Source of the DNA: Gallionella sp.
GTDB lineage: Bacteria > Pseudomonadota > Gammaproteobacteria > Burkholderiales > Gallionellaceae
Direction of reading: 5' to 3'
Assembly: GCA_028688275.1 (NCBI GenBank)
Contig: JAQTYN010000003.1
Span: 1,358-65,357, forward strand
Length of the DNA stretch: 64,000 nucleotides
Both the position numbers and the translations under genes were made by a program. The stretch's first letter is position 1. Every line of letters starts with the position of its first letter. The notes under the pieces are model-generated. The model ran no database searches. It was given only the letters and a program-made list of their open reading frames with translations, and had not been told where the DNA came from. This document shows, one piece after another, positions 3-6,277 of this stretch.

Positions 3-266
3 ATGGAACTGGCGGAGGTGCGGCAAGCCTTGTCCGAAGCCAGCGCGGGGATTGGGCGGGTCACGACACCTGCGCAAACGTTGGTGCGGGCAGCACGGGT
101 AAAAACAGGTTTGTCGCAACAGGCTTTTGCCGATCGCATCGCCACCCCCGTGGCAACCTTGCGCGATTGGGAACAAGGTCGATTTTCACCACCTGGTGGG
201 ATTCTCTGTCTGCTGCGGTTACTTGAGCGACATCCTGATTTAAGCGATGAATTGGCGTTGGCGTAA
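3..266 (+). CDS. XRE-family helix-turn-helix protein (HigA/NadS-like antitoxin), probably 5'-truncated by the window edge
   Basis: LSQQAFADRIATPVATLRDWEQGRFSP matches the XRE HTH 'WEQGR' signature. The frame is open to the window start. Confidence 0.8.
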   Translation: MELAEVRQALSEASAGIGRVTTPAQTLVRAARVKTGLSQQAFADRIATPVATLRDWEQGRFSPPGGILCLLRLLERHPDLSDELALA

Positions 267-452: not shown

Positions 453-1130
453 TTATTCAATCTGCTCAAAAATCAGCAATGCACACGCCACGCAAGTGGA
501 TTTGACGGTTTCCCAGTCATGCCAACGGGGGGCTAGGTTTTTGTATTCGGACAAATTAACGTCTTCTAAATCGTATGGCAGCGGATTGGCAAGCTGGATT
601 TGCAATTGTTGCAAGGCAGATTCACCGTTGGTTTGAGGATACAAACGGTCGAAATTTTGTAATGCTTGCACCAATGCGGCATCACCAATATGTGCCGCCA
701 GAGCAACAAAATCGAGATAATCGCGGGTGGCGTTGCGTTTGAGTATTAACACGCCTTTGATGCGCAAAATTTCCGCTTGTGTCGGCACGGTGATGGTTTT
801 GCCAAAACATTCGACTTGTGTGATTTCCAGCGGCTGTTCGCGAATCAGTTGTCGTATGCCCGTTTCAATGCCGTCCAAGCTCCCCAAAATTTGCACGGGG
901 CGTTGGACGCGGGCGGTTTTCCAGCCTGCAATGGATTCCAACTCTGCCAATATCGCATCGAAGCGCGGGCGTAGATCGGTTAAAACATGATCTGCATCCA
1001 CGGATAAGCGGTGTTCCGCATACAAAGCCGATGCCGTGCCGCCAACCAACACAGCGTCAGGCAAAATGCGTTGCAAACGCGCGGCAGAGGACAGCACTCG
1101 CTCCCAATCAGGCAAGTTGTTGTTCGACAT
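453..1130 (-). CDS. Nucleotidyltransferase, AbiEii/MenT-like (Pol-beta superfamily) putative toxin
   Basis: LVGGTASALYAEHRLSVDADH (GG..DxD) and K..KRNATRDYLD motifs. The ATG at 1130 overlaps the end of the upstream small ORF. Confidence 0.75.
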   Translation of the reverse strand: MSNNNLPDWERVLSSAARLQRILPDAVLVGGTASALYAEHRLSVDADHVLTDLRPRFDAILAELESIAGWKTARVQRPVQILGSLDGIETGIRQLIREQPLEITQVECFGKTITVPTQAEILRIKGVLILKRNATRDYLDFVALAAHIGDAALVQALQNFDRLYPQTNGESALQQLQIQLANPLPYDLEDVNLSEYKNLAPRWHDWETVKSTCVACALLIFEQIE

Positions 1131-1329
1131 AGTGTTTCCAAAGATGGTATCGCTGGGCGTAAGGGTCGTGGGTATGCGCGCCGCATACGCGGAGAATCTT
1201 TTCCAGCAACAGCGGGTTGTCCAGCACCGCATGGCGCAAGCCTGACCAGTCTTGTCGTTGACCACGCCCAATCACGTCGTCAATGGCTGCGAGGGTGAAA
1301 TTTTGGTGGTTTAGGTGGCGGTGTTGCAT
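1108..1329 (-). CDS. 73-aa hypothetical protein, putative cognate antitoxin of the nucleotidyltransferase
   Basis: ATG-started ORF overlapping the NTase start by 23 nt, the usual antitoxin-toxin layout. Confidence 0.7.
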   Translation of the reverse strand: MQHRHLNHQNFTLAAIDDVIGRGQRQDWSGLRHAVLDNPLLLEKILRVCGAHTHDPYAQRYHLWKHYVEQQLA

Positions 1330-1543
1330 GATTTTGGGGTAAAAAGTGAGGAGGTCGAATTATATACCGTTGCCTTATTTTTTTACCCATCACCTTCTCA
1401 ACACTCGCATCGGTTTAAACGCACACCTTAGTCAAATTGCGCTTAAGATAAGCACTTGCATCCAAAGTATAAGCAACTGGGTGTGATGCAAATATCCGTA
1501 ACTTCCCTTGCGCCTTGAAAAGCGCGTCCAACAGGAGATAATC

Positions 1544-2694: not shown

Positions 2695-3990
2695 ATGAAT
2701 CTAAATCAAAAAATAGCCATAATCGGCGGTGGCTACGCGGGCATGGCGGCGGCGGTGACACTGGCGCAGCGCGGCGTTGCCGTCACCGTGTTTGAAAGTG
2801 CCAAGCAACTCGGCGGACGGGCGCGGGGTGTGAGCTATCAAGACACGCAATTGGATAACGGGCAGCATTTGTTGCTGGGCTGTTATCGGGAAACTTTGCG
2901 CCTGATTGAGTTAGTCGGCGGCAATATCGAACAAGACTTTGTGCGCTTCCCGCTGCAATTGGAGTTGCATGAACAGTTTTCCTTAAAAGCCCCCAACTTG
3001 CCCGCACCGCTGCATTTGTTGGTGGCGTTTGTGCAGGCGCAAGGGCTGACGTGGGCGGATCGTTTGAAGGCGGCGGGGTTTATGGTGCGCTTGCAACTGG
3101 CGAAGTTTCGTTTGGATCAGTTGCAACGCGGCATGACGGATTGCACCGTGGAGGAACTGATGACCCGTTATGGGCAAACAGGCGATCTGACCTTAAAGCT
3201 GTGGGAACCGCTGTGCATCGCCGCTTTGAATACGCCCATTGCACAGGCTTCGGCGCAAGTGTTGCTGAATGTGCTGCGTGATTCGCTGAATCAAACCCGT
3301 GCCGACAGCGATATGTTGTTGCCGCGTATGAATTTCACCGCCTTGTTTCCGCAACGCGCCGCGCAATATGTGGAGGCGCAGGGCGGAAAAGTGCATCTTG
3401 TGTGTGGTGTTGAAACGCTACGGCAAGTCGAGCATGGTTTTGAGCTGACTACGCCGCAAGGCACGGAATTGTTCGATAAAGTCATCTGCGCCACCTCGCC
3501 CAGCGTCGCCGCGCGCTTGCTACGTGACACGTTGGACGTGAGTTTAATTGCCGCTTTGCCGCAACAACCGATTTACACCGTGTATTTGCAATACCCCGCC
3601 GAATGCCGTTTGCCCACGCCGATGTTGGGCTTGCATCAGTGCACTAGCCAATGGCTATTCGACAAAGGACAAATCGCGGGGCAGCACGGCTTAATCGCCT
3701 CGGTGATTAGCGCGGAAGGCTTGCACCAAGAGTTAAGCCAAGACCAGCTCGCACTCGCGGTTGCAGCTGAACTCCAACAAAAATTTGCCTTCCCCGAAGC
3801 CCCCGTTTGGTACAAAGTCATCGCCGAAAAGCGCGCCACCTTCTCCTGCAACGCTCACCTCGTCCGCCCCGACCAATGCACCAGCGTGTCAAATTTATGG
3901 CTGGCGGGCGATTACACCGCAGGCGATTATCCTGCCACCTTGGAAGGCGCGGTGATGAGTGGGGTCAAGTGCGCGAGGGAAATTTCGTAG
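2695..3990 (+). CDS. hpnE: Hydroxysqualene dehydroxylase (FAD-dependent oxidoreductase)
   Basis: IAIIGGGYAG FAD motif, LGGRAR, DNGQHLLLGCY, EKRATF and AGDYT..YPATLEGAV. Confidence 0.85.
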   Translation: MNLNQKIAIIGGGYAGMAAAVTLAQRGVAVTVFESAKQLGGRARGVSYQDTQLDNGQHLLLGCYRETLRLIELVGGNIEQDFVRFPLQLELHEQFSLKAPNLPAPLHLLVAFVQAQGLTWADRLKAAGFMVRLQLAKFRLDQLQRGMTDCTVEELMTRYGQTGDLTLKLWEPLCIAALNTPIAQASAQVLLNVLRDSLNQTRADSDMLLPRMNFTALFPQRAAQYVEAQGGKVHLVCGVETLRQVEHGFELTTPQGTELFDKVICATSPSVAARLLRDTLDVSLIAALPQQPIYTVYLQYPAECRLPTPMLGLHQCTSQWLFDKGQIAGQHGLIASVISAEGLHQELSQDQLALAVAAELQQKFAFPEAPVWYKVIAEKRATFSCNAHLVRPDQCTSVSNLWLAGDYTAGDYPATLEGAVMSGVKCAREIS

Positions 3991-4145: not shown

Positions 4146-4370
4146 ATGTATGCGGAAAAACTGTCTGTTTCGATTCCTGCGGGACTCGTTGGATTTATTG
4201 AACAATATCGCGCCACGCACGCGCTCAAAAGCCGTTCTCAAGTGATCGGGGCTGCGCTGGAATTGCTGCGTCAGCGCGAATTGGAAACGGCGTATCTCGC
4301 CGCCAGCCAAGAAGTCGATGCCGATTGGGAGCAAACCACAGCGGATGGGTTGAATCATGAAACGTGGTGA
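4146..4370 (+). CDS. Ribbon-helix-helix (CopG/MazE-type) antitoxin
   Basis: KLSVSIP..SRSQVI..AL RHH pattern and acidic tail. It overlaps the toxin start and has an AGGAG RBS. Confidence 0.85.
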   Translation: MYAEKLSVSIPAGLVGFIEQYRATHALKSRSQVIGAALELLRQRELETAYLAASQEVDADWEQTTADGLNHETW

Positions 4371-4692
4371 AATTTGGTTTGCCGATTTAAATCCTACACG
4401 AGGCTCGGAAATCGCCAAATGCCGCCCCGTGCTGATCGTCAGTAACGATGCAAACAACCGCGCCGCCAGCACCATCACCATCCTGCCGCTGACTTCCAAT
4501 GTGGCAAAGGTCTATCCCTTTGAAGTCCTGCTCACCGCCGCCGAATCAGGCTTACCCAAAGACTCCAAAATCCAAGCCCAACAAATCCGCACCATTACCA
4601 AAGAACGCATCACGGGCAACGCGGTCGGGAGTGTGTCAAAACCAACGCTACAATTGGTTGACGCGGCGATTCGGTTGCATTTGGGGGTGTAA
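4357..4692 (+). CDS. mazF: PemK/MazF-family endoribonuclease toxin
   Basis: MKRGEIWFADLNPTRGSEIAKCRPVLIVSND..ILPLTS..SKIQAQQIRTI. Confidence 0.92.
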   Translation: MKRGEIWFADLNPTRGSEIAKCRPVLIVSNDANNRAASTITILPLTSNVAKVYPFEVLLTAAESGLPKDSKIQAQQIRTITKERITGNAVGSVSKPTLQLVDAAIRLHLGV

Positions 4693-4706: not shown

Positions 4707-4925
4707 ATGCAGATGAATACTTTGATTCGCCCAACTGATAACGAAAACGCAGCTATCACAACGGCGGCATTATCCGATCCCGACGCGCTGCTGCTGACCG
4801 ATATCGAACGGGTGCAAGTTTGTCTTTCGGGCAGTGATTTTGCCCAAAGCATTCACAAGCACTTTGCCGATCTTGGCTTAGATGAACTACCGATTCCACC
4901 GCGTCAGGTTTGGCAAGTGCGTTAA
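4707..4925 (+). pseudogene. 72-aa chimeric antitoxin-like ORF (BrnA-like N-terminus, FitA/StbC-like C-terminus)
   Basis: GGAGA RBS. PTDNENAAITTAALSDPDALLLTD resembles the BrnA N-terminus and SIHKHFADLGLDELPIPPR resembles the FitA-like tail (recognised from memory). Confidence 0.45.
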
Positions 4926-5158: not shown

Positions 5159-5350
5159 ATGAAAGCAAATGAGTTTGAACAACGATTTGAGGCGGGGAAG
5201 ATATTTTGGATGCGCTTGATCTTTCCAAAGCCCGTCGAGTTGCACAGGGTCAAAAACGGGTCAACGTGGATCTCCCTGCTTGGATGGTGGAGTCTTTGGA
5301 TAGAGAGGCCAGCCGCGTCGGGGTGAGCCGACATCCATTATCAAAGTTTC
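5159..5350 (+). pseudogene. Frameshifted CopG/BrnA-type antitoxin preceded by a BrnT-like 3' remnant
   Basis: Restoring two 1-nt deletions gives MKANEFEQRFEAG-EDILDALDLSKARRVAQGQKRVNVDLPAWMVESLDREASRVGVSR-SIIKV. Confidence 0.7.
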
Positions 5351-5392
5351 GTAAGGCAGTTTCGCGCAGCAACCCACCAAAATAGGACGAAT

Positions 5393-6277
5393 TTGAATAT
5401 GAATACCTTTAATCCTCTACTTGATTATCTGCATCAGTCTTTGTGCATAGACTATTTTAGTCCTTATAATTGTTATTATTATTATGATGGAGAGAAAAAA
5501 CTCGAAGGGAGGGCTACTTTTTTCATGCGTCCTTCTAATTACTCCCCTTGTGCGCCTTTACAGCTACAAATAATGATCGCATTTACTATTCTTGACGGAC
5601 TTATTGATGAAGCCAATCCCGACCTTGTTGATTATAGCTTCGATAAAAAATATAAGGCGTTGCCAGTATCAACAAACATCGAAAAAATTAAACAATCTAT
5701 TTATCGTATTATTCGGTTGATTCGGAACAAGATAACGCATTCCCCAACAGAAATAGGCTATTCGGATGAGGAATTAACAATTAAGGAATTCAAAATATCT
5801 AGACACGCATTAACTGCGCTAATAGAGTTGATACTTGTATTTGTTGAATATAAAACCGTTACGGATAAATACTTTGAGTTAATCGTCAGTAGCTACTACA
5901 GGAGTATTCAACGTGGCATTTCTGGCTCCCCAGACACTCACACACCCTCACTTCATAATGTCTCCGTGGAAAATAAAAACTTCTATCACAAACAACGACA
6001 TTTATTTTGCATTAAAAATGTTGATTTAAACCTAAATAATTGTGTTTCTATTAAGCGCTCCCATTGTGACTATGAAATTATCGACTCTGATGGACAAAAA
6101 TTTCGAGTGAAAGATCGGGATGATTATTTAATAAAGATCAAAGATGATGGTCTATTTCTTATTCCTGGGTTTCAGATTGCAGATAGGGAGCTGATTGAAT
6201 ATGAGTTGCTAAATCAATGGCGCATTGAGGAAAATTGGTTTGGCAAATTGAAAATTCTTACGCAAATAGAGATATAG
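5393..6277 (+). CDS. AT-rich hypothetical protein with an RxxxxH (HEPN-like) motif
   Basis: 294-aa ORF with an AGGA RBS and a helical segment ending RLIRNKITH. Confidence 0.7.
   Translation: MNMNTFNPLLDYLHQSLCIDYFSPYNCYYYYDGEKKLEGRATFFMRPSNYSPCAPLQLQIMIAFTILDGLIDEANPDLVDYSFDKKYKALPVSTNIEKIKQSIYRIIRLIRNKITHSPTEIGYSDEELTIKEFKISRHALTALIELILVFVEYKTVTDKYFELIVSSYYRSIQRGISGSPDTHTPSLHNVSVENKNFYHKQRHLFCIKNVDLNLNNCVSIKRSHCDYEIIDSDGQKFRVKDRDDYLIKIKDDGLFLIPGFQIADRELIEYELLNQWRIEENWFGKLKILTQIEI

Follow-up and report, generated by a model that had tools for sequence, protein, structure and literature searches.

Toxins of the DUF1814 superfamily, AbiEii and the MenT proteins among them, are some of the most widespread toxins of toxin–antitoxin (TA) and abortive-infection systems, and the 3' ends of transfer RNA (tRNA) are the only targets established in the superfamily (PMC7450476, PMC10435456). 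In MenAT1 (Rv0078B-Rv0078A) of Mycobacterium tuberculosis, the minimal toxin MenT1 is encoded just downstream of MenA1, a 68-aa antitoxin with no DNA-binding domain (PMC7450476, PMC10435456). AbiE (AbiEi-AbiEii) and MenAT3/MenAT4 (COG5340-DUF1814) are likewise two-gene operons with the antitoxin first, whereas in SanaTA, RlegTA and SdenTA the DUF1814 toxin comes first and the antitoxin lies downstream, so that the order can invert. The locus described in this study is a pair of overlapping genes, encoding a nucleotidyltransferase (NTase) and a small partner protein, in a stretch of 64,000 nucleotides (positions 1,358 to 65,357 of contig JAQTYN010000003.1, assembly GCA_028688275.1, Gallionella sp.), which is referred to throughout as the window. 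The pair is probably a MenAT1-like, self-contained two-gene TA cassette of ∼0.95 kb with a new family of antitoxin; the toxin superfamily and the kind of system are already known, and it is the partner family that is new. The features on which this rests, numbered from the first letter of the window, are as follows, with invariance in the small protein judged in a family alignment of 53 sequences (A2).

453–1130, reverse strand: NTase gene, 225 aa plus stop, DUF1814/AbiEii family, putative toxin
1108–1329, reverse strand: small partner gene, 73 aa, ATG start, putative antitoxin
1108–1130, reverse strand: overlap of 23 nt between the 3' end of the small open reading frame (ORF) and the 5' end of the NTase ORF
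990–1043, reverse strand: NTase motifs I and II (Pol-beta catalytic), codons 30–47, with G30-G31, R41, S43 and D45-x-D47
711–758, reverse strand: NTase motifs III and IV, codons 125–140, with K125-x6-R132 and R136-D137-Y-L-D140
1306–1323, reverse strand: H-R-H-L-N-H motif, small ORF codons 3–8, with H3, R4, L6 and H8 invariant
1246–1296, reverse strand: core motif T-L-A-A-I-D-D-V-I-x-R-G-x3-D-W, small ORF codons 12–28, with D17, I20, G23 and W28 invariant
1138–1185, reverse strand: C49-x5-D55-P-Y-A-Q-R-Y-H-L-W64, small ORF codons 49–64, with Q59 and W64 invariant

Both ORFs were found at exactly the coordinates, sizes and 23-nt overlap given in an earlier interpretation of this DNA (the sequence-only reading). 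The NTase has more than 7,755 homologues at 90% clustering (best E-value 1e-138), and identity is 75% or higher in every one of the best 120 matches listed from the 90%-clustered protein collection; for the small ORF, at least 659 homologues were counted at 90% clustering (best E-value 1e-40). These counts and E-values lie far beyond chance, and both ORFs are therefore real proteins. Met1 of the small ORF is invariant, with the frame open for only 10 further codons upstream, and the overlap at 1108–1130 probably couples the translation of the two genes.

The NTase belongs to the DUF1814 superfamily, as evidenced by profile matches and by motifs. It matches Pfam AbiEii/DUF1814 (PF08843) over residues 24–178 with 31.7 bits, against a cut-off of 22.5 (E = 1.8e-7), and scored 25.6 bits in a PF08843 scan of the whole genome, which returned no further AbiEii-family gene. 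The AbiEii models of PADLOC match it weakly (E = 0.004–0.006, 14 bits), and there was no matching NCBIfam model. When the motif definitions of Dy et al. are used, motifs I and II read hG[G/S]-x(9-15)-DhD, with an Arg four residues ahead of the first Asp, motif III is a Lys among hydrophobic residues followed by an Arg (K173/R180 in AbiEii), and motif IV is a +DxxD pentad (D192 in AbiEii) (PMC3985639). All four are present in the window: V29-G30-G31 is followed after 13 residues by D45-A-D47, with R41 ahead of it at the R-x3-D-x-D spacing of R63/D67/D69 in AbiEii; I-K125-G-V-L-I-L-K-R132 has the K-x6-R spacing of K173/R180; and R136-D137-Y-L-D140 is the pentad. The GG..DxD and K..R..RD..D motifs reported in the sequence-only reading, and its assignment of the NTase to the DUF1814/AbiEii/MenT type, are thus borne out, the Pfam score being above the gathering value and the predicted fold resembling that of MenT1.

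Counted over 115 homologues from paired loci, these residues show almost no variation. G31 and S43 are each kept in 115/115, R41 in 113/115, D45 in 114/115 and K125 in 114/115, and R132, N133, R136, D137, Y138 and D140 are each found in all 115. The second catalytic position is more variable, with D47 being Asp in 102 sequences and Asn in 13 (L063, L070, L071, L073, L075, L076, L081, L089, L096, L099, L109, L115 and L138). All 13 are otherwise intact, each with an intact small ORF; the toxins may be weakened or inactive in these cases, or the clade may be able to do without the second carboxylate. Ser43 lies two residues ahead of the first catalytic Asp (S43-V-D45) and is also retained in relatives that are 50% and 39% identical. 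The same position is occupied by the phospho-acceptor of characterised toxins (T39 in MenT1, S78 in MenT3 and T65 in AbiEii), which is auto-phosphorylated upon antitoxin binding (PMC11375011; bioRxiv 10.64898/2026.01.19.700257).

Single-sequence and profile searches of PDB sequences with the NTase returned chance matches only. The AlphaFold2 model of the protein, with a predicted local distance difference test score (pLDDT) of 81 and a predicted template modelling score (pTM) of 0.81, was matched best by Foldseek to the putative NTase 4OK0 of Helicobacter pylori (E = 1.8e-5, template modelling (TM) scores 0.57/0.57), which has the same length of 225 residues and 16% identity. MenT1 followed, both free and in the MenAT1 complex (8AN5_B, E = 2.6e-5, TM 0.50/0.60; 8AN4), and phosphorylated MenT1 (8RR5) was also among the structural relatives. 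The NTase is thus a minimal member of the DUF1814 superfamily, for which MenT1 is the nearest characterised toxin, though a distant one. The two share the Ser/Thr-x-Asp phospho-acceptor and catalytic arrangement (T39/D41 in MenT1, S43/D45 here) and the position just downstream of a very short antitoxin (68 aa in MenAT1, 73 aa in the window), but no sequence match exists between them, even by profile against the PDB, and the fold similarity is no more than moderate (TM 0.5–0.6). AbiE and MenAT3/MenAT4 share with the window a toxin that passes Pfam AbiEii, carries motifs I–IV and has a Ser/Thr two residues before the catalytic Asp; the NTase of the window, however, is ∼65–70 residues shorter than AbiEii or MenT3.

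The small partner belongs to a family that has no name, model or structure. Its profile, searched against 1.84 billion cluster representatives, matched 533 clusters (50% identity) at E ≤ 1e-3 and 303 at E ≤ 1e-10, nearly all of them stand-alone proteins of ∼73–105 aa; by comparison, 21 homologues of MenA1 have been reported (PMC10435456), whereas the partner family numbers at least 533 such clusters. C49, D55, A58 and R60 are conserved in at least 90% of the A2 sequences, and the C-terminus of the family reads C-x5-D-P-Y-A-Q-R-Y-H-[FL]-W. The D-P-Y-A-Q-R-Y-H-L-W motif had been recognised from the sequence alone, but the spacing of the cysteine then given, C-x6, has to be corrected to C49-x5-D55.

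No match to the small protein was found in Pfam, NCBIfam or PADLOC, sequence and profile searches of the PDB gave chance matches only, and Foldseek of its model against the PDB and viral BFVD libraries returned nothing at E < 2. The PDB fold library contains the MenAT1 entry 8AN5 and AbiEi 6Y8Q, and across all of these searches (Pfam, NCBIfam, PADLOC, PDB and Foldseek) the small protein matched none of the described antitoxin families (COG5340/AbiEi, COG4861 and MenA1). It does not match DUF6922 (PF21956, gathering threshold 27 bits); three of the 53 family members do, at E ∼0.04 or weaker, and a distant relationship is possible. DUF6922 is nearly absent from the order to which the window belongs (one weak match in 151 genomes), and no mention of it was found in the literature. 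Nor was any literature on the small partner family found among the papers searched, although TA databases may list it. The protein has no helix-turn-helix (HTH) and no resemblance to AbiEi/COG5340, as the sequence-only reading had also held of HTH and AbiEi features.

The AlphaFold2 model of the small protein is confident (pLDDT 85, pTM 0.75) and has four helices, at residues 13–22, 25–37, 41–52 and 59–72, and a poorly ordered N-terminal tip with low confidence at residues 1–3. The partner is thus predicted to be a compact four-helix domain, whereas MenA1, which bridges two toxins, is described as a pair of alpha-helices with a disordered tail (PMC10435456, PMC11375011). In comparison with AbiE and MenAT3/MenAT4, it lacks the winged HTH and the C-terminal AbiEi domain as well as a Pfam or PADLOC match. 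The precedent of MenA1 means that this 'atypical' partner is a new family and not a new arrangement. The description of the antitoxin as atypical therefore stands for its family, but does not hold for its design, as a short antitoxin free of a DNA-binding domain is already known.

The two genes are obligately paired. In a metagenome survey seeded with the NTase, which yielded 80 loci, 73 had at least 200 nt of upstream DNA, and the small ORF was upstream of the NTase in 73/73 of these and intact in 72. The apparent exceptions were cuts at contig ends, save for one intact small ORF whose C-terminus is longer. Of the NTase-seeded loci measured, 68/77 have an overlap of exactly 23 nt and five more have one of 29 nt. 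Absence of the small ORF beside NTase homologues was the outcome that the sequence-only reading had named as telling against a TA pair, and the reverse was found, both in the pairing and in the conserved overlap. In a genome survey seeded with the small protein (59 loci, 55 informative), an intact NTase gene lies directly downstream in 39 of the informative loci, mostly with an overlap of 23–29 nt. The distance matrices of the two proteins are correlated (r = 0.77, Mantel p = 0.001), which indicates that small protein and NTase travel as one unit.

Gene callers also often err on the module because of the 23-nt overlap: they begin the NTase at an internal codon (155 aa in place of ∼225) or add a spurious N-terminal extension of 20–30 residues to the small ORF. 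The N-terminally truncated NTase of two Holophagaceae contigs (L145 and L146) was rejected as an artefact of this kind, the gene being intact.

Which of the two proteins is the toxin is suggested by the way in which the locus decays. In ∼11 of the 55 informative genome loci the small ORF is intact while the NTase is cut to 28–60 codons, frameshifted or absent, and in the remaining loci without an intact pair both genes are degraded; the converse, an NTase kept after loss of the small ORF, was never seen among the genome or metagenome loci surveyed. The closest relative, in a Gallionella metagenome-assembled genome (MAG; L001), is the clearest example, with a small ORF that is 96% identical to that of the window and an NTase match that ends after codon 28, codons 29–225 being replaced by a RelE toxin and HTH antitoxin pair.

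Fusions point in the same direction. Antitoxins are classically built with a DNA-binding domain ahead of a toxin-binding domain, and an HTH precedes the small domain in two independent fusions, P0324 (HTH_31) and P0286 (HTH_17). Immediately downstream of each fusion gene is an NTase gene of the same family, with overlaps of 26 and 23 nt respectively; the NTase beside the HTH_31 fusion is 64% identical to that of the window (hhalign E = 4e-94), and that beside the HTH_17 fusion is an AbiEii-type protein of 229 aa. The small protein of the window is the version without a DNA-binding head, as is MenA1. The H-R-H-L-N-H motif is retained within P0324, which shows that it is a feature of the domain and not an artefact of the translation start. 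In three metagenomic proteins (P0280, P0302 and P0272) the small domain is instead joined to what is left of an NTase: the catalytic N-terminal third (∼75 residues) is missing, and motifs III and IV are degenerate. These proteins look like fossilised, detoxified modules or a pseudo-enzyme subfamily. Taken together, the one-sided decay, the HTH fusions and the fusions to dead NTases suggest that the NTase is the toxin and the small protein the antitoxin.

With this polarity, the small protein would be translated first, bind the NTase directly and hold it inactive. The NTase would use a nucleoside triphosphate (NTP) and Mg2+, bound by D45, D47 and an Asp/Glu of the conserved D86-G-I-E89 strand, and would add nucleotides to an essential RNA in the manner of the MenT toxins. 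The most probable target would be the tRNA 3' CCA end, in which case aminoacylation and translation would be stopped. Neutralisation may occur by occlusion of the active site, or by repositioning of the NTP so that the toxin phosphorylates its own Ser43. The latter has a parallel in MenA1, MenA3 and AbiEi, which are unrelated antitoxins that all induce auto-phosphorylation of their toxins at the site equivalent to S43 (PMC11375011; bioRxiv 10.64898/2026.01.19.700257). As three unrelated antitoxins have this effect and S43 is invariant, the same outcome is plausible here, and by this analogy it is possible, if tentative, that the small protein induces auto-phosphorylation of Ser43. The sequence-only reading had suggested that neutralisation may differ from that of described systems; the conserved Ser43 is a pointer to the known route.

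A further and more doubtful proposal is that the small domain is a third, structurally independent neutraliser of DUF1814 toxins, which is modular and inserts its N-terminal segment into the active site of the NTase. The H-R-H-L-N-H segment, disordered in the free model, would then block or chelate the catalytic metal site or trigger the auto-phosphorylation of Ser43, with a fold related to neither MenA1 nor AbiEi. The modularity would be seen in three arrangements: a stand-alone domain upstream of the NTase, a domain with an N-terminal HTH and, in Actinobacteria, a domain downstream of the NTase with a C-terminal HTH.

Several observations weigh against a MenAT1-like cassette as described above. 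The small protein is unlike MenA1, AbiEi or any solved antitoxin in both profile and fold searches, so that any mode of binding put forward for it is a guess. The NTase is acidic, with an isoelectric point (pI) of ∼5 (family median 5.0), and the partner basic, with a pI of ∼8 (family median 9.6); most type II pairs show the opposite charge pattern, and an acidic protein would not be expected of a toxin that binds RNA. Asn in place of the second catalytic Asp, in 13 of the 115 homologues (11%), is a further difficulty in that the AbiEii mutants D69A and D69E are non-toxic (PMC3985639), and some members may thus be inactive or the chemistry may differ. Lastly, the antibiotic nucleotidyltransferases ANT(2'')-Ia and LnuA, as well as TM1012, match the NTase model about as well as MenT1 does, with TM scores of 0.5–0.6, so that the substrate of the NTase cannot be read from the fold.

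The explanation that survives best beside a TA cassette is an AbiE-type role in abortive infection, in which the module would be silent until phage infection removes the small protein by depletion or displacement, after which the liberated NTase would stop translation. This is compatible with the TA reading, from which it differs in the biological role alone, and such a role was part of the sequence-only reading. The founders of the superfamily, lactococcal AbiE as well as SanaTA and RlegTA, do give phage resistance (PMC3985639; bioRxiv 10.64898/2026.01.19.700257), the PADLOC AbiEii models recognise the NTase, if weakly, and one relative adjoins HipA, DUF6036 and ART-PolyVal genes while another adjoins a CRISPR-Cas locus. 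However, the PADLOC matches are far too weak for classing the NTase, and the neighbours in the window are an aldolase, an HpnE-like oxidase and ordinary TA pairs, with no defence island. The AbiE of Streptococcus agalactiae gave no protection against 32 coliphages (bioRxiv 10.64898/2026.01.19.700257). No relatives were found in IMG/VR (2.9 million viral contigs) or in GenBank phage records, an absence that says nothing in favour of defence. No finding of the analysis supports an anti-phage role, and as the main role it is unlikely.

It is considerably less likely again that the pair is no TA system, and that the NTase is a small-molecule or antibiotic nucleotidyltransferase (ANT/Lnu-like), or a housekeeping RNA modifier, with the small protein as its regulatory or specificity subunit. 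The presence of ANT(2'')-Ia, LnuA and TM1012 among the top fold matches, with scores similar to that of MenT1, and a pI unusual for an RNA-binding toxin would be explained in this way. The DUF1814-specific motifs III and IV (PMC3985639), on the other hand, are all present and invariant, the pair is patchy, being found in 2% of the genomes of the order, the gene for the enzyme decays repeatedly while its partner is kept, the partner is fused to HTH domains, and the pair sits among other TA genes. Motifs, patchiness, decay, fusions and surroundings fit an addiction module and not a useful enzyme with its subunit.

The reverse polarity, in which toxicity would lie with the small basic protein and the NTase would be an antitoxin that modifies it, as MntA polyadenylylates HepT, can be set aside as highly improbable: NTases do act as antitoxins in HEPN/MNT systems (PMC7641770), which are also two-gene modules of an NTase and a small helical protein, toxin-first TA systems exist, and the small protein is basic with an invariant N-terminal R4/H8 pair, but this only invariant Arg/His pair is spaced R4-x3-H8 and not Rx4-6H as in the HEPN ribonuclease toxins, no HEPN structure is among the fold matches, the NTase has toxin-type DUF1814 motifs and not the minimal MNT form, HTH domains are fused to the small domain, and ∼11 loci keep an intact and highly conserved small ORF with no functional NTase, which would be lethal were it the toxin, whereas the NTase alone was found at no locus. 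The decay pattern and the HTH fusions, which make both the accessory-subunit and the reversed-polarity explanations unlikely, point together with the motifs in the opposite direction to HEPN/MNT.

The pair, taken as a TA cassette, also has the distribution of a mobile element. It occurs at 65–80% identity across Beta- and Gammaproteobacteria, Desulfobacteria, Chloroflexi, Acidobacteria, Nitrospirae, Planctomycetes, Verrucomicrobia and Spirochaetes and in one archaeal MAG, yet within the window's own order an intact pair was found in only 3/151 sampled genomes, with remnants in two more, and it was absent from the sampled genomes of the same genus and family. A few plasmids carry it, among them the conjugative IncP megaplasmid pKF715A of Pseudomonas putida, and TA genes surround the module in the window as they do elsewhere. 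This patchy horizontal spread is the behaviour of a selfish, mobile module. The annotation of pKF715A assigns the NTase to the AbiEii/AbiGii family and calls the partner hypothetical.

A different arrangement is seen in two distant relatives, an NTase on a Pseudonocardia plasmid (L142, 50% identical) and one on a Deferribacter megaplasmid (L143, 39% identical), both of which pass Pfam AbiEii and keep the R-x-S-x-D-x-D motif. Neither has a recognisable small ORF upstream; a candidate partner lies downstream, overlapping or abutting the NTase gene (3177–3611 in L142 and 3321–3659 in L143). In this they are like SanaTA, RlegTA and SdenTA, whereas in the clade of the window the partner is upstream. 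The actinobacterial downstream partner is ∼146 aa long, has a C-terminal XRE-type HTH and belongs to a family of at least 551 members at 90% clustering, which in automatic annotation is often mis-named 'YiaG' or 'aMBF1'. Its N-terminal domain (alignment A3) reads F-R-N-L...P-T-E-A-V-Q-A-A-L-E-R-G-D-L-x-D-W...P-Y-G, and by eye the motifs come in the same order and at nearly the same spacing as H-R-H-L...T-L-A-A-I-D-D-V-I-x-R-G-x3-D-W...P-Y-A of the small protein. The statistics are weak, with hhalign of A2 against A3 giving E = 0.0045 over 25 columns and a probability of 8%, while the per-sequence E-values from hmmsearch lie between 1e-4 and 1e-2 and each time concern one stretch, the core motif of codons 12–28; the two domains are nonetheless probably homologous.

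Two features of the upstream DNA bear on regulation.

1359–1364, reverse strand: -10-like hexamer TATAAT, 30 nt upstream of the small ORF ATG, the putative promoter of the cassette
1337–1388, no strand: perfect 9-nt inverted repeat, GGGTAAAAA / TTTTTACCC, which brackets the -10-like hexamer

TATAAT has no good -35 element, and a scan for consensus promoters called nothing upstream of the operon; by eye, -10-like hexamers are present 25–40 nt before the start of the small ORF in many other loci, where the upstream DNA is otherwise unrelated. The inverted repeat is missing from the closest relative and from other loci, and it is doubtful that it has a function. No conserved operator was found upstream of the small ORF across the loci compared, in which the module differs from AbiE and MenAT3/MenAT4. 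This fits a partner that has no DNA-binding domain, and for the same reason auto-repression through a specific operator is probably not a part of the system in the window.

Current work argues that very different antitoxins all make the toxin phosphorylate itself, and the pair offers a large natural test set for this idea, with thousands of extremely conserved members, a fixed 23-nt overlap, variants that are HTH-fused or toxin-decayed and, going by the predicted model, an antitoxin fold that is absent from solved structures. If the small domain does induce phosphorylation of Ser43, the mechanism would hold in general for antitoxins of unrelated fold; otherwise the pair would represent a new way of controlling DUF1814 enzymes. 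The partner is annotated only as 'hypothetical protein' (e.g., on pKF715A) and the NTase is often truncated by gene callers, and the family deserves a name and a model.

Other TA genes lie to either side of the pair. An antitoxin with an MqsA/XRE-type HTH is located at the left edge of the window (3–266, forward strand), and its RelE-like partner is found upstream in L001. Just downstream of the NTase stop, at 337–425 on the reverse strand, is the orphan 3' end (∼29 codons, ...EWEVGEKSPSGIALKLLNIVERNGLEMLA*) of an XRE-HTH antitoxin gene, which corresponds to positions 3989–4077 of L001, where the gene is intact together with the RelE toxin. The ancestor seems to have had an array of two TA pairs, of which the lineages of the window and of L001 each kept a different half. 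In another relative (L147, positions 1–2463) the HTH-fused module adjoins genes for a HipA_C kinase, a DUF6036 nucleotidyltransferase and an ART-PolyVal ADP-ribosyltransferase, surroundings that look like a TA or defence island.

On the other side, housekeeping genes for a class I fructose-bisphosphate aldolase (1508–2560) and an HpnE-like amine oxidase (2695–3990) lie between the TA pairs, followed by a small ORF and a PemK/MazF toxin (PF02452, 105 bits) with overlapping stop and start at 4146–4692 on the forward strand. At 5393–6277, also on the forward strand, is an ORF of 294 aa that has no Pfam match, appears to be AT-rich, with a translation rich in Asn, Ile, Lys and Tyr, and lies directly 3' of two short antitoxin-like ORFs (4707–4925 and 5206–5385); it may be a foreign gene or a toxin or defence gene.

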